NCBI GenBank assembly: GCA_963678065.2
Contig: CAXXVZ010000005.1
Coordinates: 448,001-512,000 of the forward strand
DNA from: Treponemataceae bacterium
GTDB lineage: Bacteria > Spirochaetota > Spirochaetia > Treponematales > Rectinemataceae
DNA length: 64,000 nucleotides
Reading direction: 5' to 3'
The position numbers were made by a program, and so were the translations under genes. Below the pieces are notes generated by a model. It ran no database searches and had not been told where the DNA came from. It saw only the letters and a list, made by a program, of their open reading frames with translations. Within the stretch, counting starts at the first letter, position 1. The number at the start of each line of letters is the position of its first letter. Positions 1,351 through 55,358 of the stretch are shown here, in pieces.

Positions 1351-2283
1351 TCAGTCGTAGAGAAGGGGAAGCATCTCGGGGCTGTCCATATTGGTCTTGT
1401 CGTACCAGTGGAAACCGGTGTCGATGATCTTATCAAGCTTCTCGCCCTTGAGGGCCTTGACGGCGGCCTCGACGGTCTTGTAGCCGATGCCGACCGGGTC
1501 CTGGGTGATGGAGCCGGCCATCTCGCCCGAGCGGACCGCGTCTTTCTGCTGTTTTCCGGCATCGTATCCGATGACGACGAGCTTGCGCTTCATTTCCTTG
1601 ACTGCGTTGAGTACGCCGATGATGGAACCTTCGTTGGCGCCGAAGTAGCCCTTGAGGTTGGGGTTGGCCTGGAGAACGGCCTTGGCCAGGTCGGTGGACT
1701 TGAGCTGGTCGCCGCCGCCGTACTGGACAGACACGATTTTGATCTTGGGATACTTGGCTTTCATCTGGTTGACGAAGCCGTCGCGGCGGTCGATGCCGGT
1801 GCGGCTGGTCTGGTCGTGCACGAGGACGGCTACGTCGCCGGTCCCGCCGATGAGGGCGGCCATCTTGTCCGCAGCGAGAGCCGCGGCGGCGACGTTGTTC
1901 GTGGTGGCGGTGGCGAGGGGGATGTCGCTGTCGACGCCGGAGTCGAAGGCGATGACGGGGATGCCGGCGGCCTGGGCTTTCTTGAGAAGGGGAATGGCTG
2001 CCTTCGAGTCGAGGGCGGCAAAACCGATAGCCTGGGGCTTCTTGGCCAGGGCGGCCGTCAGCATGTCGATCTGCTTGTCGACCATGGCTTCGGTCTCGGG
2101 ACCTTCGAAGGTTACCCTGACGTTGAAATCCTTGGCCGCTTTCTCGGCGCCCAGCTTCACTGCCTGCCAGAACTGATGCTGGAAGCCCTTGGAGATGAGG
2201 GGAATGTAGATGGTCTGCGCGCCGGCAAAGGCGACGGCCATCACGAGCAGGACCACAGCCGCGAACAATTTCCTGTTCTTCAT
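1351..2283 (-). CDS. Monosaccharide ABC substrate-binding protein (RbsB-like; possibly L-fucose)
   Basis: Signal peptide MKNRKLF..AFAGA with AGGAGG RBS; periplasmic binding protein motifs IPVIAFDS and VIGYD. The SKGFQHQFWQAVK motif resembles, from memory, a fucose-type SBP. Confidence 0.9.
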   Translation of the reverse strand: MKNRKLFAAVVLLVMAVAFAGAQTIYIPLISKGFQHQFWQAVKLGAEKAAKDFNVRVTFEGPETEAMVDKQIDMLTAALAKKPQAIGFAALDSKAAIPLLKKAQAAGIPVIAFDSGVDSDIPLATATTNNVAAAALAADKMAALIGGTGDVAVLVHDQTSRTGIDRRDGFVNQMKAKYPKIKIVSVQYGGGDQLKSTDLAKAVLQANPNLKGYFGANEGSIIGVLNAVKEMKRKLVVIGYDAGKQQKDAVRSGEMAGSITQDPVGIGYKTVEAAVKALKGEKLDKIIDTGFHWYDKTNMDSPEMLPLLYD

Positions 2284-2403: not shown

Positions 2404-3420
2404 TTACTTCTTGCGGCGCAGATTGTCCGTGTAGACGGCGAAGATGACGATGAGCCCCGTGACGACGGTCTGCCACTCCTGCGGAACGTTCATGATGCGC
2501 AGGCCATTGATGAGGACGCTCATGATGAAGGCGCCGATGACGGTGCCGAGGATGGTTCCCTCGCCGCCCGAAAGGGATACGCCGCCTATGACCGCCGCCG
2601 CGATCGCGTCGAGCTCGTAGCCCTGGCCGAGGGCCGGCTGGGCCGAGTTGAGCCGGGAGGCGATGAGGACGCCGGCCACGCCGACGATAGTTCCGGACAG
2701 GGTGTAGATGCCGATCTTCCACGCGTCGACGTCGACGCCCGAGAGCCGGACCGCTTCCTCGTTGCTGCCGATCGCGAAGTTGTAGCGTCCGAGCACCGTC
2801 TTGTTCAGGATGAAGCCCGCGATGGCCGCGACGCCGAAGAAGATGAGGACGGCGTTCGGAATCGCGAAGCCTGGAATGATCGCGGAGAGATCGAGCAAAG
2901 TGCCCATGGCGATGAGGTTGAAGGCCTCGGTGTCGACGAAGTAGATCGGCTTCGTACCCGATATGACGAGGGAGAGTCCTTTCACGATGAGCATCATGCC
3001 GAGAGTGACGATGAAGGGCGGCAGCTTGAGCTTGGAGACGAAGGTGCCCGAGATGCATCCGACGAGGGCGCCGGTGAGAAGGCCCGCGAGGACGCCGACA
3101 AGAATGGGCATGTGCCAGTAGGTTATGAAGACGCCCGTGATGACGGCGCAGAAGGTCATCAGGGTTCCGATGGACAGATCGATTCCGCCCGTGATGATGA
3201 CGAAGGTGACGCCGATGCCGAGAACGCCCGCGACGGCCGTCGACAGCATGATGGAGACCATGTTGTCGATCCTGAAGAAGTTGGGCGATGCGATGGTGAA
3301 GATGATCAGCATCACGACGAGGCTGGCGAAGGCCAGGAGTTTCTGTGTCGCACTCGAACCGAATTTCTGGGTGGGCGCCTTTACTGCCGTTTTTTCCGCA
3401 ACTGTTGACATTGTCTTCAC
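2404..3420 (-). CDS. Monosaccharide ABC permease (RbsC-like)
   Basis: TGGIDLSIG, LPPFIVTLG, AIGSNEEAVRLSG and YELDAIAAAVIGG motifs. Confidence 0.93.
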   Translation of the reverse strand: MKTMSTVAEKTAVKAPTQKFGSSATQKLLAFASLVVMLIIFTIASPNFFRIDNMVSIMLSTAVAGVLGIGVTFVIITGGIDLSIGTLMTFCAVITGVFITYWHMPILVGVLAGLLTGALVGCISGTFVSKLKLPPFIVTLGMMLIVKGLSLVISGTKPIYFVDTEAFNLIAMGTLLDLSAIIPGFAIPNAVLIFFGVAAIAGFILNKTVLGRYNFAIGSNEEAVRLSGVDVDAWKIGIYTLSGTIVGVAGVLIASRLNSAQPALGQGYELDAIAAAVIGGVSLSGGEGTILGTVIGAFIMSVLINGLRIMNVPQEWQTVVTGLIVIFAVYTDNLRRKK

Positions 3421-3433
3421 GTCTCCTTTGTTC

Positions 3434-4939
3434 TCAGTTCGCCTCGCGAAGGGTCGCGAGCCTCATGATATTTTCCTGGGTGATATCGCCGCCTGAGAGT
3501 TCGCCCGTGATGCGTCCCTCGCACATGACGAGGACGCGCGTGCAGAGCCTGATGACCTCCGGCATTTCCGAAGAGATCATGATGATGGTCTTGCCTTCCG
3601 CCGCGAGTCTGTTGAGCAGCTTGTAGATTTCGAACTTCGCGCCCACGTCGATGCCTCGCGTCGGCTCATCGAAAATGAGGATGTTGGAGTTCCTGACTAT
3701 CCACTTGGCGATGATGACCTTCTGCTGGTTGCCGCCCGAGAGGAATTTCACTTTCTGCGAGAGCGAAGGCGTCTTGATGGCGAGGGATTCGACGAATTCG
3801 CCGCCGGTTTTGCGTGTCAGCTTCGTATGGACGACGCCGATGAAGTTGAGGAATTTCTCCATCGAGGCCAGGACGACGTTGGTCTCCACGTCCATACCGA
3901 GGGCGAGGCCGTAGCGTTTGCGATCCTCGGAGAGATAGCCGATGCCGTGCTTCACGGCGTCCCGCGGCTGACGGATACGGACGGATTTGCCGGAAACCTG
4001 GATCTCTCCGGACTCCACGGGATCGGCGCCGAAGACGGCGCGCGCCACCTCGGTCCTGCCCGCCCCCATGAGGCCGGCAAAGCCCAGAATCTCGCCCTTG
4101 CGGACCTCGAAACAGGCATTCTTGATGGCGCGCCCGCGGTTCAGGTTCTTCACGGAAAGCACTACCTCGGAGGAACCGGCGATTCCGGGCGCCCTCGACA
4201 TCTCGTCGAGCTTGCGGCCGACCATCATGTTGATGATCTGGTCCATCTCGACGTCTGCGGCGTTCACGGTGTTGATCCAGGTGCCGTCGCGCATGACCGT
4301 GATGCGGTCGGCGATCTTCTTGATCTCGTCCATGCGGTGCGAGATGTAGATGATCCCGACCCCGCGATCCTTGAGGTGGCGGATGATCTGAAAAAGCTCC
4401 TCTATTTCCTTGTCGTTGAGGGCCGCGGTGGGCTCGTCCATGATGAGAAGCCCGGAGTTGAAGGACAGCGCCTTCGCGATTTCGATCATCTGCTGCTTGG
4501 CCACGACGAGATCCTTGACGCGGGTGCGCGGATCCAGGTCGAGGTGGAGCATTTCGAAAAGCTTCCGTGACTCGTCGTTCATCTTTTTTTCATCCACGAC
4601 GATGCCGAGGAAACTGCGGGGCTCCCTGCCTATGAAAATGTTCTGCGCGGCCGTCAGATGCTGGGCAAGGTTGAGCTCCTGGTGAATGATGCCGATGCCG
4701 AGGTGCCGGGCCGCCTTCGGATTGGGGATCTCGACCTCCGCGCCTTTGTAGACGATGGTGCCGGCATCCTTGGAATAGACTCCTGCAATGATTTTCATGA
4801 GGGTGGATTTGCCGGCTCCGTTCTCTCCGAGCAGAGCGTGGACCTCTCCCGCGCGGATATCGAACTTGACGTCCTTGAGGGCATTCACGCCGGGGAAGGA
4901 TTTGTTGATTCCCTCCAGCCGAAGAAGCTGTTCGCTCAC
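3434..4939 (-). CDS. Monosaccharide ABC ATP-binding protein (RbsA/MglA-like, two ABC domains)
   Basis: [22 protein letters not shown] and [12 protein letters not shown] motifs. Confidence 0.95.
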
Positions 4940-5677: not shown

Positions 5678-6667
5678 ATGATAGTGTGTTGCGGCGAAGC
5701 TCTCGTCGACATGGTTCCGGCACAGACAGCGACCGGCGAAGTATCCTTCCAGCCCTGCCCCGGGGGAAGTCCCTACAACAGCGCGATAGCCCTCGGAAGA
5801 CTCGGGCGCGAAACCGGTTTCCTCGGCAATCTCTCGACGGATTTTTTCGGCGAGATGCTGGCAGGAAGGCTCAGACAGAATGGCGTCTCGACGGCCATGG
5901 CCAGGCGCGTCCCGAAGCCGAGCACTCTGGCCTTCGTGAATCTTCAGCCGGGAAAAGATCCCGAGTACGCTTTTTATATGGAAGGAACCGCGGACCGTTC
6001 GCTGCTCGCCTCCGATCTGCCGGAGAAACTGGACGGTATCGACTGCCTTCTCGCAGGCTCCATCTCCCTCGTCCTCGAGCCCTGCGGTGCGACCCTCGAG
6101 GACTTTCTCATCGGAGAATCCCGCCACCGGATTCTGTCCTTCGACCCCAATATCCGCCCTTCGATGATTCTCGACCGGGCCGCCTACCTCGGTCGCTTCT
6201 TCAGGCTCGTCAGCCACGCGGCCATCGTCAAGATTTCCGAAGTCGACCTCGCCTGGCTCTACCCCGGAATCGGCGGCGACGAAGCCTTCTTTCGGCTTTT
6301 CGGCTCCGCGACGGAGAAACGGCCCGACAACGAGCCACTCCTCGCCGTCCTCACGCGGGGAGGAGCGGGCGCCCAGGCCATATTCTTCAACGGGGGGCAG
6401 AGGGAAGAGGCGGCAGTCCCGGGATTGCCCGTGAAAGTCGTCGATACCATCGGCGCCGGCGACACCTTCCACGCCGGTCTTCTCGCCTGGCTCGACGGAA
6501 ACGGTTTCCTCTCGAAAAAAACCCTTCCGGCGATGGACTCCCGGAGGCTCGTCGAGGCATTATGGTACGCCAATGCCTCCGCGGCCCTCGCCTGCGGCAA
6601 GCGGGGAGCCGAACCGCCCTTTGCGTCGGAAGTCAGAAGTCTTCTGGAGAGGCGGAACCTCACATGA
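5678..6667 (+). CDS. PfkB family carbohydrate kinase (fructokinase-like)
   Basis: GEALVD, GGSPYNSA, FDPNIRP and DTIGAGDTF motifs. Confidence 0.92.
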   Translation: MIVCCGEALVDMVPAQTATGEVSFQPCPGGSPYNSAIALGRLGRETGFLGNLSTDFFGEMLAGRLRQNGVSTAMARRVPKPSTLAFVNLQPGKDPEYAFYMEGTADRSLLASDLPEKLDGIDCLLAGSISLVLEPCGATLEDFLIGESRHRILSFDPNIRPSMILDRAAYLGRFFRLVSHAAIVKISEVDLAWLYPGIGGDEAFFRLFGSATEKRPDNEPLLAVLTRGGAGAQAIFFNGGQREEAAVPGLPVKVVDTIGAGDTFHAGLLAWLDGNGFLSKKTLPAMDSRRLVEALWYANASAALACGKRGAEPPFASEVRSLLERRNLT

Positions 6668-41742: not shown

Positions 41743-43596
41743 ATGGGCGGATCGACAGGGCGAGAGGGTCGCGACACAATCGACAGGGACATACGCGCCT
41801 GGATCGGATCGAGGCTGATAATCGCCGACGGCTCCACGGGGACGGCCCTCGAAGCCCTCTCCCCCGGCATCGGGGCGAAGGGCGCCCTCCTCCCTCTGAC
41901 CAGACCGGAACTCGTCGAGGAACTGCACCGCTCCTACTTCCGCGCGGGGTCCACGCTCGTCGAGACGGCCACCTTCACGGCGAGCGCCCGGTCGCTCGAA
42001 CGCTTCGCGGAATCGAAAGAGGCAGGAATCGGCGATCCCGGAGAACTCGCCTACGCGGTGAACCGGGCTGGGGCGGAGGCCGCCGTCCGCGCGGCGCGCG
42101 AAGCCGAGGCCACGGCGGGAGAGCCACGCTGGGTCGCGGGCTCCATCGGCCCCGGCGACGCGCCCCCGAGCTTCGGCATGGCCACATGGGCCCAGCTGCG
42201 TGAGTCCTACCTTCCCCAGGCGCGGGGACTAGCCGACGGGGGGGTCGACCTCGCCATCGTCGAAACCTGCCAGGATCCCCTCCAGATCAAGGCCGCGCTC
42301 GCCGCCCTCATGAGCCCGGAAGGAGGAAGGGGCCTGCCCTTCATCGTGTCGGCCACCGTGGACGCCTCGCGCCGCATGCTCGCTGGGACGAGCCTCGCCG
42401 CCTTCGTCGCCATCGTCGCGCCCTTCAGGCCGCTCGCCCTCGGGCTCAACTGCTCAGGCGGTCCCGACGAGCTCGCGGAGAGCCTCGCCGAGCTCGCCTC
42501 GCTCTCGCCTCTCCCACTCTGCTTCATGCCCAACGCGGGTCTCCCCGTCTCGGTCGACGGCAAGACGAGTTTCCCATTCGGACCCGACATCTTCGCGGCC
42601 AAGGTCGGGGCGATGGTCAGGAAGCACGGCATCGCGATCGTCGGCGGCTGCTGCGGGACGGGCCCCGCGCACATCGCCGCGCTTGCGCGAGCCCTGACTG
42701 CCGAAGCCCCGGACAGTCTCAAGCGCGGCGCGCCTGTCGCCACGCCTGCCGGGCGCTCCCCGGCCCGTCTGCCCGCCCTCGCGTCCCTGTACGAGGCGCG
42801 GCCGGTCGGACCTGAACTGTTCATGATCGGCGAGAAGGCGAACGTCTCCGGCTCGGCCGCCTTCGGCGATCTTCTCGAGGCCCGGGATTTCGACGGCATG
42901 GGCGAAATGGCGCTGGAGCAGGAAGGGACGGGAGCGCAGGCCATCGATCTCCGGGTCGCCCGCCGCGGCCGCGACGAGGCCGAGGACATGAAGGAACTCG
43001 TCGGGCTCATCGCGCTCCGCGCGCGCGCTGCGCTCTCGATCGACAGCACCGATCCCGGCGTCGCCGCCGCCGCCCTTCCGCTTATAGGCGGACGCGCCCT
43101 CATCAATTCGGCGAGCCTGAAAGATCCCGGCAGAGCGCGCGGGATCTTCGCTGCCGCGAGGGAACACGGCGCCGCCGTCGTCTGCCTCGCCCTGGACGCA
43201 GGCGGACCTGCCCGGAGTGTCGCCGGAAAGGTGAGCATCTGCCGGAAGCTCTACGATCTCGCCACAGGCGAGTACGGGCTCCCGCCCGAGTCACTCTTCT
43301 TCGACCCTGTCGTCCTCCCACTCGCGACTGCTCCTGAGGCTGCCGCAAAGACTCTCGACGCAATTCCCGCCATCAAGGAGGCCTGCCCGGGTTCCCTCAC
43401 CATACTGGGACTCGGCAATTTCTCCTTCGGGATGCCCGAGGGCGTCAGGAAGCAGGCGGAGGCCGTCTTCCTCGACATGGCGCGCGCGCGCGGACTGGAC
43501 GCCGCCATCCTCGACACGGCCGGAGTCCCTCCCGTCGCGGCGGTGGACGCGGCGCTCAGAGAGTCCATCGGGCGCCGCGTCGCGGAAGGGAAATAG
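41743..43596 (+). CDS. Split methionine synthase: homocysteine S-methyltransferase plus pterin-binding domains only
   Basis: ADGSTGT, ETCQDPLQIKAA, Zn ligands LNCS and GGCCGT, then MIGEKAN..SIDST..INS..FDP..NFSFG. No DxHxxG cobalamin motif. Confidence 0.85.
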   Translation: MGGSTGREGRDTIDRDIRAWIGSRLIIADGSTGTALEALSPGIGAKGALLPLTRPELVEELHRSYFRAGSTLVETATFTASARSLERFAESKEAGIGDPGELAYAVNRAGAEAAVRAAREAEATAGEPRWVAGSIGPGDAPPSFGMATWAQLRESYLPQARGLADGGVDLAIVETCQDPLQIKAALAALMSPEGGRGLPFIVSATVDASRRMLAGTSLAAFVAIVAPFRPLALGLNCSGGPDELAESLAELASLSPLPLCFMPNAGLPVSVDGKTSFPFGPDIFAAKVGAMVRKHGIAIVGGCCGTGPAHIAALARALTAEAPDSLKRGAPVATPAGRSPARLPALASLYEARPVGPELFMIGEKANVSGSAAFGDLLEARDFDGMGEMALEQEGTGAQAIDLRVARRGRDEAEDMKELVGLIALRARAALSIDSTDPGVAAAALPLIGGRALINSASLKDPGRARGIFAAAREHGAAVVCLALDAGGPARSVAGKVSICRKLYDLATGEYGLPPESLFFDPVVLPLATAPEAAAKTLDAIPAIKEACPGSLTILGLGNFSFGMPEGVRKQAEAVFLDMARARGLDAAILDTAGVPPVAAVDAALRESIGRRVAEGK

Positions 43597-52157: not shown

Positions 52158-53480
52158 TCAGCAGGCCGCGAGAGCCCGGTCCAGGTCCGCGATGATGTCC
52201 GCGATGTCCTCGAGGCCGACCGAGAGGCGGATGAGGTCGGCTGTGACGCCGCACTCGTCGAGCTGCGCTTCCGTGAGCTGGGAGTGGGTCGTCGTAGCGG
52301 GGTGGATGGCGAGGGACTTGGCATCTCCCACGTTGGCCACGTGGGAGAAGAGGCGCAGGTTTTCGATGAAGCGCCCGCCCGCGGCGCGGCTTTCCGCCTG
52401 AGTCACGCCCCTCACGCCGAAGACGACCATGCCGCCCGAGCCCTTCGGCAGAATCCGCGAGGCGAGGCCGAAGGAGGGATCGCCCTCGAGGCCGGGGTGG
52501 CGGACCCAGGCGACCTTGGGGTGGCTCTTCAGGTGCTTCGCGACCGCGAGGGCGTTCTCCGAGTGCAGGGGCATGCGCACGTGGAGCGTCTCGAGACCCT
52601 GGAGGAAGATCCAGGCGTTGTCGGGCGAGAGGCAGGCGCCCAGGTTGCGCAGGGGCACGGTCCTGAAGCGCAGCGCGAAGGCGATTTTCGCCGATTCGGG
52701 CGGGAGGTCCAGGGCCCAGCGCATCCCGTGGTAGTTCTTGTCGGGCCTGGTGTAGAGATCGAATTTCGGGTCCGACCAGTCGAATGTACCTGCGTCGGTC
52801 GCGATGCCGCCGATGGCTGTCCCGTGCCCGCCCATCCACTTCGTGAGCGAGTTGACTACGACATCCGCGCCCAGCCCGATCGCCCGGAGGAGGTAGGGTG
52901 TCGTGAAGGTCGCGTCGACGACGAGGGGGAGGTGGTGCCGCTTCGCGACCGCCGAGATGGCCTCGATGTCGGCGAGGTCGAGACTCGGGTTGCCGATGGT
53001 CTCGAGGTAGAAAAGGCGGGTTTTCGGCGTGACGGCGCGCGAAAAGGATTCCGGGTCGCGTATGTCCGCGAAGCGGGTCGTGATGCCGAGGTCGGGAAGG
53101 ATGGCGTCGAACATCGTGTAGGTCCCTCCGTAGAGGTTGGCGGCCGAGACGATCTCGTCTCCGGCGCGCGCGATGTTGATGACCGCGTAGAAGATGGCGC
53201 TCGTGCCCGAAGCGACGGCGACGGACGCCGCCCCGCCCTCAAGCTCGGTGACGCGCTTTTCGAGCATCTCGACGGTGGGATTGCCGAGGCGCGAGTAGAT
53301 GTTGCCGGACTCCCTGAGGGCGAAGAGATTCGCCGCGTGCTCAGCGTTCCGGAAGGTGAAGGCGCTCGTCCGGTAGAGGGGAGCCGCCCGGGAGAAGGTC
53401 ACCGGGTCGGGCTCGTGGCCCGAATGGATCGCGCTCGTGCCGAAACCGCGCGCCTCACCTGTCTCTTTCTGTCCGCCCAT
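52158..53480 (-). CDS. metY: O-acetylhomoserine sulfhydrylase
   Basis: NIYSRLGNPT, SLTKWMGGHG (PLP Lys) and ANVGDAKSLAIHPATTTHSQL motifs. Confidence 0.93.
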   Translation of the reverse strand: MGGQKETGEARGFGTSAIHSGHEPDPVTFSRAAPLYRTSAFTFRNAEHAANLFALRESGNIYSRLGNPTVEMLEKRVTELEGGAASVAVASGTSAIFYAVINIARAGDEIVSAANLYGGTYTMFDAILPDLGITTRFADIRDPESFSRAVTPKTRLFYLETIGNPSLDLADIEAISAVAKRHHLPLVVDATFTTPYLLRAIGLGADVVVNSLTKWMGGHGTAIGGIATDAGTFDWSDPKFDLYTRPDKNYHGMRWALDLPPESAKIAFALRFRTVPLRNLGACLSPDNAWIFLQGLETLHVRMPLHSENALAVAKHLKSHPKVAWVRHPGLEGDPSFGLASRILPKGSGGMVVFGVRGVTQAESRAAGGRFIENLRLFSHVANVGDAKSLAIHPATTTHSQLTEAQLDECGVTADLIRLSVGLEDIADIIADLDRALAAC

Positions 53481-53512
53481 GTTCTCCTCCCCTTGCCGTT
53501 TTTTCAAACATA

Positions 53513-53527
53513 TACCACACTGTGGTA
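53513..53527. promoter_or_regulatory. Perfect palindrome in the 50-bp divergent metY/HTH promoter
   Basis: TACCACA-C-TGTGGTA. Confidence 0.75.
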
Positions 53528-53530
53528 GTC

Positions 53531-54088
53531 ATGCAAGACAGCCCTAAAACGGAAACCAGGATGACCGGAGAAGAATTTTCCCGCCTGCGCAAGCTCCTCG
53601 GAAAGAGCCAGAAGGAGCTGGCGGACATTCTCGGCATTTCCCGGAAGGCCGTGGAGAGCTACGGACAGGGCTGGCGCAAGGTTCCGGCCAACACGGAGCG
53701 CATGCTCTATTTTCTCCTCTTCAAGCTGAGAGGATCCCTCCTCGTCGGGACGGGCGCCTGCTGGGAGATTCGCTCCTGTCCGGATGCCGCGCGACAATCC
53801 TGCATGACCTGGCTCGCGCAGGAAGGCCACTTCTGTTGGTTCTTCACGGGGCGCCTGTGCGCCGCGCGCAGAACCGGCCTGCCGGAAAATCTGTCTGCCC
53901 GCAGCCGGGATCACCAGCAGACAGGGACAGCCTCCGGCGACGAGCTCTCGCCCTGCCGCGACTGTTCCGTCTTCAGGGGAATGATCGATCTCATCCGCGA
54001 AGCCGACGTCGGCGCAGAAGCCGTCGCTGTGGCCGCTGCGGCCACTCCCGCCGCCAGTATCCATATCCACACCGAACCCGGACGCTGA
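53531..54088 (+). CDS. XRE-type HTH regulator fused to a Cys-rich 'two-CW'-like domain
   Basis: [30 protein letters not shown], then [27 protein letters not shown] (7 Cys). Confidence 0.82.
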
Positions 54089-54117
54089 AGTCGTCGTCAT
54101 ACAGAAGGAGCCACAGA

Positions 54118-55059
54118 ATGCCCGTAAAAATCCCGAACGATCTGCCCGCCGCGACCACCCTGGCACAGGAAGGCATCTTCGTCATGACGGCCGAAAGGGC
54201 CATCCACCAGGACATCCGCCCCCTGCGCATCGCCGTCCTCAATCTCATGCCGACCAAAATCGTCACCGAGACGCAGCTCCTTCGCCTCCTGTCCAATTCG
54301 CCCATCCAGCTCGACATCACCTTCATCCGCATGGGGAGCCACGAATCGAGGAACACGCCCACTGAGCATCTGGAAGCCTTCTACGAGCCCCTCGACCGGA
54401 TCCTGCACGAGAGGTTCGACGGCCTCATCGTCACCGGCGCCCCTGTCGAAACCCTCGAATTCGAGGAAGTGGACTACTGGGAGGAACTCGTCAGGCTCAT
54501 GGAGTGGTCCAAGACCAATGTCTGGTCCACGCTCCACGTCTGCTGGGGCGCCCAGGCCGGCCTCTACCACCACTACGGCATCAAAAAGCACCCCGTTCCG
54601 GCAAAGGTTTTCGGCGTGTTCCGCCACGAGGTGCTGGAAGCCCGCGAGCCCCTTCTCCGGGGATTCGACGAGGTCTTCCTCGCGCCCCATTCGCGCCACA
54701 CTGAAGTCCTGCAAAAGGACATCGCGGCGACGCCCGGGCTCCGCCTCCTCGCGGTCTCCGACGAGGCCGGCGTCTACATGGCGGTATCCGGGGACGGGCG
54801 GCGCGTATTCGTGACCGGCCACCCCGAATACGACAGGCTGACCTTGAAGGCCGAATACGACCGCGACGTCGCGAAGGGACTCCCCATCGCCGTGCCCGTC
54901 AACTATTACCCGGACGACGATCCCGGGCGCAACCCACTCATGACCTGGCGCGCCCACGCCCACCTCCTGTACTCGAACTGGCTCAACTACTACGTCTACC
55001 AGGCGACACCCTTCGACCTCGATGAGCTGCCCGCCACGGAGACGCCCTTCGCGAGGTAA
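54118..55059 (+). CDS. metA: MetA-family homoserine O-acyltransferase, predicted acetyl-CoA specific
   Basis: LNLMPTK, TGAPVE (Glu at the specificity position), VCWGAQA and TGHPEY motifs. Confidence 0.94.
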
Positions 55060-55358
55060 ATCCGGTATGATACTGGCGCCGCGGCCGGGCGATGACTCCT
55101 TCCTTCGGTTAGATTTCTGGATGAGGCAACACGCTCCGGAGCGGGCGGGCGGCCTTCCGGTTGGGGAGGCTTGCCGGGTCCATCATTGACTTCTCCTCCT
55201 CCCCGATGAAATATAATCAGCACGTCTTCCGGGACGGAGACCACGGCGGGAGGAGAAGCAGATGTTCCTCGTTTCTTTGGTGGCAGCCTTCGGGAAAGAC
55301 TACCTGCCCGCGCTCCAGTCAGACTTCGGGCTCTCCGGCGGGAACGGGACACCGGATC

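Follow-up and report, generated by a model that had tools for sequence, protein, structure and literature searches.

A candidate sulfur-responsive XRE-type regulator with a seven-cysteine two-CW domain and its predicted operator between metY and metA in a Treponemataceae bacterium

A window of 64,000 nucleotides from a Treponemataceae bacterium (contig CAXXVZ010000005.1) contains metY, a regulator gene and metA, with a 15-bp palindrome, TACCACA-C-TGTGGTA, in the spacer from which metY and the regulator gene diverge (Table 1). The regulator joins an XRE-type helix-turn-helix (HTH) domain to a seven-cysteine domain. The metA start lies 29 bp past the regulator stop codon, in line with a sequence-only reading of this DNA that had placed the HTH gene directly 5' of metA; the order is repeated in many relatives, and the two genes are likely co-transcribed. 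The divergent spacer, given in that reading as 50 bp, has this length if translation starts at ATG 53531 (yielding 185 aa) and measures 80 bp with ATG 53561; GTG 53522 is a further in-frame start. A purine-rich ribosome-binding site (RBS) of metY lies at 53484-53492. As described earlier, the spacer contains the palindrome; that reading judged it too short for an S-adenosylmethionine (SAM) riboswitch or T-box. No SAM-I riboswitch was found in the host genome, and there was no Rfam match in the window locus (L012; loci are numbered L and genomes G, the host being G000). Short contigs from three metatranscriptomes span parts of metY, the regulator gene and metA, and are not counted as expression evidence.

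Table 1. Features of the metY-regulator-metA locus (window positions) and of the leader element found at other loci
Feature	Position	Strand	Basis or detail
metY, O-acetylhomoserine sulfhydrylase	52158..53480	-	TIGR01326, 562.5 bits (cut-off 495)
Predicted regulator-metA promoter	53493..53521	+	Comparative geometry; -35 TTGCCG (53493-98), 17 nt, -10 CACACT (53516-21) in operator
Predicted metY promoter	53507..53536	-	Sequence inference; -35 TTGCAT (53536-31), -10 TATATG (16 nt) or TATGTT (18 nt), operator in spacer
Predicted operator TACCACA-C-TGTGGTA	53513..53527	.	Single strong genome site, conserved in homologues, tracks regulator gene
Regulator gene, 175 aa	53561..54088	+	Open reading frame (ORF) list, homologue search
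XRE-type HTH domain, aa 1-57, with Glu35Gly	53561..53731	+	Pfam HTH_3 PF01381, 23.3 bits (cut-off 23)
Seven-Cys two-CW domain, aa 67-135	53759..53965	+	NF045718, 19.7 bits here (cut-off 35)
metA, homoserine O-acetyltransferase	54118..55059	+	MetA_acetyl NF047918, 486 bits (cut-off 460.5)
Leader element	L002:1210-1379	-	
Leader element	L010:1243-1412	-	
Leader element	L035:4734-4903	-	
Leader element	L037:322-491 and 3314-3483	+	
Leader element	L067:15405-15574	+	
Leader element	L067:11164-11333	-	
Leader element	L069:556-725 and 1768-1937	+	
Leader element	Host G000:C3 near 1552466	-	
Leader element	L168:3333-3502	-	

In an AlphaFold model of the regulator (mean predicted local distance difference test score, pLDDT, 81.9), the HTH scores above 90 throughout, and residues 1-57 match XRE repressors in structure (best Z 7.2, root-mean-square deviation (rmsd) 1.1, 57 residues aligned). 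Searches of Pfam and NCBIfam at E up to 0.1 gave no match to the ArsR, ribbon-helix-helix, LysR, TetR or Rrf2 families, and Pfam gave none to a cupin domain. An identity as an MqsA antitoxin was rejected: TIGR03830 scored 23.4 vs 61.8 bits over the HTH part only, and the neighbours are metY and metA, with no toxin gene. A single-protein search of viral contigs found no relative.

The cysteines of the second domain lie at positions 67, 73, 81, 92, 100, 132 and 135, forming two CW pairs (C67W68 and C92W93) and a CxxC motif (132-135). The pattern had been noted in this one protein and proves to be general, as each Cys is kept in 64 of 64 aligned homologues; across phyla, a 44-row alignment has six invariant Cys and a seventh that is nearly so. 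The domain spans about 70 residues, with Cys, Trp, Gly and Ala at its conserved positions, and is predicted to be mainly helical, with an insertion near residues 110-123 modelled at low confidence. One homologue carries the NCBI label 'two-CW domain-containing protein', and all six Desulfobacterota homologues tested pass the NF045718 cut-off (40.8-52.6 bits), which identifies their C-termini with this catalogued domain; the window copy falls under it, and L080 and L026 score 23.6 and 24.6 bits. Homologue alignments A1 and A3 match each other with 100% probability over 126 columns; row L075, which covered the wrong region, was left out of alignment A4. For the domain of homologue L104 modelled alone (pLDDT 83.6), Foldseek returned no solved structure and the best VIA match reached Z 2.2 (rmsd 3.5, 53 residues aligned). 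PDB sequences gave no match, and an Atlas search returned only hypothetical or HTH_3 clusters. The missing structure match would not in itself prove a new fold.

The palindrome is the sole match at up to two mismatches in the window (0.01 expected) and, in a genome scan, the sole match at up to one mismatch in the 5.27-Mb host genome. Two genome matches with two mismatches, before an IclR-like gene (C3:606344) and inside a gene (C3:1794382), were judged unrelated. Symmetry alone means little, because the host genome has 661 other perfect 7-1-7 palindromes; it is conservation that gives this one meaning. The sequence recurs at up to two mismatches in 29 of 35 non-redundant regions upstream of homologues, bearing out its earlier description as an operator candidate. 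Tandem sites are common, with a 16-bp period, and the variants are one-sided, not compensatory.

The site also co-occurs with the regulator gene, as judged against a reversed pattern and regulator-less genomes. Among 61 related genomes, a site at up to one mismatch is present in 14 of the 15 that carry the regulator, vs 3 of the 46 that lack it, all three inside genes; the reversed pattern occurs in 4 of 61. Within Desulfobacterota, 11 of the 44 genomes that carry the regulator contain an exact site, vs 2 of the remaining 207, where one site is promoter-like, in a fragmented assembly, and the other lies inside a gene. A scan at up to one mismatch, covering 80 of the 251 genomes, gave 30/42 with the regulator vs 7/38 without it (reversed control, 6/42 and 9/38). 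An Aminicenantes record (L043) has two sites. The gene metY is present in 21 regulator-less relatives, from which 17 loci were fetched and 16 were informative (L178 has no usable upstream sequence). None of these 16 scored above 9.3 upstream of metY with a matrix trained partly on the positives, vs 10 of 13 regulator-positive loci at 19.7 or more; the palindrome is thus no general feature of metY promoters. Six genomes with an Rrf2/CymR-like protein and no regulator have no site, and ten with the regulator and no Rrf2/CymR-like match have sites, so the site tracks the XRE gene and not the Rrf2/CymR-like protein.

Overlapping promoters had also been proposed for the spacer. A consensus scan found no sigma-70 promoter there at its threshold, both predicted promoters falling below it, but the proposal draws support from comparative geometry. 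At 38 non-spirochaete sites, mostly from Desulfobacterota, TTG(A/C) occurs 32 times at 17-18 nt from the operator centre, counting both strands, and the predicted metY promoter shares this register. At 54 spirochaete sites, again on both strands, it occurs 22 times at 26-27 nt, the register behind the predicted regulator-metA promoter, and 29 times at 41-43 nt. Depending on the register, the operator falls between -35 and -10, covers the -10 or follows closely after the start. In the window, transcription is predicted to begin near 53528 on the plus strand and near 53500 on the minus strand. Because every recurrent register overlaps a predicted core promoter, and because one bound dimer would block both promoters of the window, we infer repression.

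A homologue search with the regulator returned 113 matches, itself included. The family comprises 338 representatives at 50% identity (E up to 1e-10, possibly with HTH-only matches among them) and 3,745 clusters at 90% identity (E up to 1e-20). Within the host family, 14 of 36 genomes carry the gene, as do 1 of 200 other Spirochaetota genomes sampled and 44 of 251 genomes of Desulfobacterota, the phylum of a Syntrophales record, where one match is partial. In a quick-method tree, 28 of 29 spirochaete proteins cluster with L042 and L043 (support 92, node not starred) and L166 lies among Desulfobacterota; no direction of transfer is claimed. The expected linkage to met genes is borne out in spirochaetes, where metY, metA or metX lies within 1.5 kb of the regulator at 22 of 29 distinct loci. 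Any Met/Cys gene lies within this distance at 28 of 29, vs 0 of 500 random host windows. At loci without metY, the regulator stands behind metQ or beside cysK and ttcA. A second regulator copy in G028 (L016), which has no operator site upstream, was dropped from this count by the Cys-pattern filter.

Sites away from the regulator widen the picture. In spirochaetes, they precede cysK (L026, L029, L032, L033, L037, L070), metQ (L041), luxS (L071), mtaB (L068), metY and, in L067, a cystine-type ABC transporter and the metF/coaBC (coaB-coaC) divergon. Further distal sites lie before larE-nifS (L042), nifU-nifS (L112), thi4 (L155) and moeB or tusA-moeB (L096, L106, L119, L121). Desulfobacterota sites precede metY (L102), thrC-like and thiI-like genes, moeB, tusA, nifU-nifS, thi4, tauE and ttr/nrfD-like clusters. 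In L144 (G127:C14:25256), the operator sits between TTGACA and the -10 of the aprBA promoter, with aprB over its cut-off and aprA cut by the locus end. The sequence-only reading, a methionine regulator controlling direct sulfhydrylation, is therefore too narrow for the family: since sites also stand at cysteine, sulfur-relay, iron-sulfur (Fe-S) and sulfur-respiration genes, the family regulon is one of sulfur supply and not of methionine alone. The older wording fits the reduced regulon of the host, which seems to have shrunk to metY and regulator-metA.

Taken from sequence comparison, it is highly probable that the protein binds the palindrome as a dimer, that the promoters lie where predicted and that binding represses them. 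We also think it probable that the XRE + two-CW protein is an autoregulated dimeric repressor on TACCACA-N-TGTGGTA that reads sulfur status through its Cys domain. The dimer would cover the back-to-back promoters of metY and regulator-metA, staying on the DNA when sulfur is sufficient. When sulfur is short, it would free metY and metA; in relatives, the genes freed would also include cysK, metQ and those for cystine uptake and sulfur relay. The most speculative part is the signal: it may be sulfide or cysteine-derived sulfur, perceived at a metal or Fe-S centre that the Cys residues would bind. SAM is unlikely as the signal, because a SAM-I riboswitch between the regulator and metY separately guards metY in L106 and L121. 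In our preferred but tentative model, four of the seven Cys make up one site and the other three a second, in which one position is left open. A precedent for such an open site is NreB, a three-Cys [2Fe-2S] sulfide sensor according to the available part of PMC13478379.

Several observations weigh against this reading. In the host there is a single strong site. The matches ranked next by the matrix (18.5, 18.2 and 16.1) lie within genes or in the asd/CBS divergon; at cysK, luxS, metH, cysE and the second metY, the host matrix scan found no operator site. In the YEQG stretch after the recognition helix, residue 35 is Gly in the window protein vs Glu in the 63 other rows of the 64-row alignment A1, a substitution common to all four members of its cluster. 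Among distant members, Cys100 is less constant (kept in 91 of 111), which makes a six-Cys binuclear Zn site possible as well. The link to sulfur genes is looser in Desulfobacterota, where 30 loci were chosen by protein score: a site lies within 300 bp at 14 of them, a Met/Cys gene (metY, metX, cysK, cysE) is present at 7, and 18 include at least one member of a wider sulfur set (background, 5 of 500 host windows), which adds tusA/dsrE, moeB, thi4 and mnmA to the Met/Cys genes and was compiled after the neighbours were known. Homologues with a shorter Cys loop that stand before mnmA (L082, L083, L090, L101, L103) have no upstream site, and these members may have lost or changed the operator. 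Of 30 distal regions taken from regulator-positive genomes, no more than about 9 contain a recognisable sulfur gene; the others hold cytochrome/porin clusters, transporters, a GGDEF protein, a purC-like gene, unknown or unrelated genes, regulator paralogues and chance matches. Chance matches in promoters are inflated by the likeness of the half-site TGTGGTAT to an extended -10 element. Finally, kin genomes are not independent, although the operator pattern is repeated in two phyla plus the Aminicenantes record.

Of the alternatives, one keeps the repressor and operator and makes the Cys domain a structural Zn module, the effector being O-acetylhomoserine, O-acetylserine, homocysteine, S-adenosylhomocysteine (SAH), SAM or Met, as for SahR, MetR and CmbR. 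It would suit a spirochaete regulon made up mostly of Met/Cys synthesis, uptake and recycling, and six invariant Cys plus one less so fit Zn sites. The short domain, with its conserved Cys, Trp, Gly and Ala, speaks against it, as do Desulfobacterota targets such as nifUS, thi4, ttr-like genes and aprBA and the SAM riboswitches already before metY in L106 and L121; we consider it unlikely. Alternatively, the domain might hold an oxygen- or redox-labile cluster and serve as a general sensor of redox or Fe-S status, with sulfur enzymes as incidental targets. Sites before multiheme cytochrome/porin, cytochrome b and NrfD-like genes would agree with this, and the groups that carry the regulator are known as anaerobes. 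However, no oxidative-stress genes were recognised among the annotated targets and the spirochaete targets are nearly all Cys/Met genes, which leaves this option with a low probability.

The host copy itself might be weakened or decaying within an otherwise functional family, with its cysteine genes passed to an Rrf2/CymR-like protein. The Glu35Gly change and the one site left point this way, and in XRE folds such as the 434 repressor an Arg10-Glu35 salt bridge is stabilising. A second host sulfur cluster (G000:C3:1551000-1558900, L168) points the same way; besides metY, cysK and ttcA it comprises an Rrf2/CymR-like gene, another Rrf2 fragment, moeB-like and nifS-like genes and a Cys/Met lyase. 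Its metY is divergent from the Rrf2-cysK-ttcA operon, and the metY-Rrf2-cysK-ttcA part (1.551-1.555 Mb) has no strong site, the sole one in the cluster being weak (10.4) and before ttcA. Yet the ORF is intact, all seven Cys are kept and the operator is perfect; the same substitution occurs in all four cluster members, and model pLDDT stays above 90 over the HTH. Decay of the host copy is thus also improbable.

It is very improbable that the palindrome serves another factor, such as an Rrf2/CymR-like protein, or mediates MerR-like activation from the promoter spacer. An Rrf2 gene does adjoin cysK in some loci (L019, L027), and an operator in the -35/-10 spacer is a MerR-like arrangement. Site presence follows the XRE gene and not the Rrf2 match, however, and the spacers are 16-18 nt, not 19-20, with the other registers on the -10 or the start. 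Hardly credible is a palindrome without a bound protein, whether as back-to-back extended -10 elements (TGTGG-TA) of divergent promoters or as an RNA hairpin: the non-spirochaete right arm does run into a -10 at 17-18 nt from TTGAC, often on both strands, and the scan tool flags the palindrome as terminator-like, but it is missing from metY promoters of regulator-less genomes, precedes single-direction promoters too (L004, L032, L036, L102), is kept in two other registers where an extended -10 is impossible, and varies on one side only.

Returning to the sulfur-status repressor, a bolder and doubtful extension would make the two-CW domain a new Fe-S sensor fold that binds sulfide or persulfide at the open three-Cys site. 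The family would then supply the regulator of sulfur status that has been missing for many Desulfobacterota and for spirochaetes of sediments. It would tie Cys/Met synthesis to sulfur-carrier relays, to Fe-S assembly and, in part of the genomes, to aprBA and to respiration of a tetrathionate/polysulfide-reductase-like kind.

Known regulators resemble this protein in part. CymR and IscR have similar target lists as repressors of cysteine or Fe-S genes, with a winged-helix Rrf2 fold instead; IscR binds its cluster through three Cys. The host has a separate Rrf2 beside cysK, and the operator motif does not track it. MqsA-type antitoxins also combine an XRE HTH with a Cys domain, whereas here the domain order is reversed and there are neither CxxCG motifs nor an adjacent toxin. 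SutR (YdcN) of E. coli, set apart here by description, carries a C-terminal cupin on its XRE-type HTH, in contrast to the seven-Cys domain of the present protein. SutR likewise regulates sulfur metabolism (available part of PMC5210515). SahR and SamR (ArsR), MetJ, MetR, MtaR and CmbR (LysR) and McbR (TetR) also control met genes through promoter sites, but belong to other families with other effectors; as the earlier reading held, none has this architecture as described in the available part of PMC4239095. In that same part, SahR operates in Desulfovibrionales and Desulfuromonadales, and the SahR/SamR consensus is ATC-N10-GAT; the terms 'XRE' and 'Syntroph' do not occur in that paper. CstR, SqrR, BigR and FisR also sense sulfide or sulfane sulfur through Cys (available part of PMC9774590); they and NreB use two or three Cys in CsoR, ArsR, Fis or PAS folds. 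These persulfide repressors control detoxification, whereas most targets of the present family assimilate or move sulfur. The regulator would thus work like SahR, CymR and SutR, from sites overlapping promoters, and may sense like CstR, SqrR and NreB, without their defining domains.

The claim of a new architecture holds in one respect: no description of the family, the domain function or the motif was found in the open-access literature, RegPrecise and subscription journals lying outside this scope, and data tabulated in PMC4239095 may still alter how new the family looks. The Cys domain, on the other hand, is already catalogued as two-CW NF045718, a label for which no function or structure was found. 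This is a real and apparently undescribed regulator family with a well-supported operator. It offers a first functional lead for the two-CW domain, and it concerns control of sulfur assimilation and trafficking in free-living spirochaetes and in Desulfobacterota outside Desulfovibrionales and Desulfuromonadales, which the available part of PMC4239095 does not cover. The strong operator and target list lend themselves to in vitro tests, for which a 130-aa protein and a 15-bp oligonucleotide would serve. The sites at the aprBA promoter and a cysK/hgcAB divergon suggest a tie to sulfate reduction and possibly to mercury methylation.

That divergon lies at L070:4922-7853 (G029:C5). On one side of a perfect operator at 6641 is cysK; on the other, in divergent orientation, a MarR/ArsR-like gene is followed by hgcA (381 bits, over cut-off) and a gene for an hgcB-like ferredoxin. 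The host HgcA (G000:C4:644063-645100, L169; 330.6 bits, over cut-off) has no operator upstream. Several Desulfobacterota sites or neighbours (L087, L088, L149, L153 and L140-L143) resemble selenium-linked families (ExtKL over its cut-off; ExtP, SaoE, YedF and GSU2204-like under theirs), hinting at a selenium side to the regulon. The third-best host matrix match (18.2; G000:C3:88162), in the divergon of asd and a CBS-domain gene, could be a weak site or a -10 element.

A conserved leader element was found in spirochaetes before metY, metA and a cystine transporter. It consists of a short ORF whose codons read M-x-(C/W)-(G/S)-M, a GCCCCG...CGGGGC stem, a second hairpin and then the RBS. It has no Rfam match, is absent from the short metY leader of the window and occurs also in two regulator-less genomes; it is a candidate Met/Cys leader-peptide attenuator or new riboswitch. 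Within the window, a GC-rich element of about 35 bp 3' of metA (55097-55133), present at 10 further places in the genome, may be a repetitive extragenic palindromic (REP)-like repeat or a terminator. A metH-like methionine synthase gene without an operator lies 8.5 kb from metY (about 41800-43593), and its tblastn match covers residues 2-579 of a relative's 1141-aa MetH.

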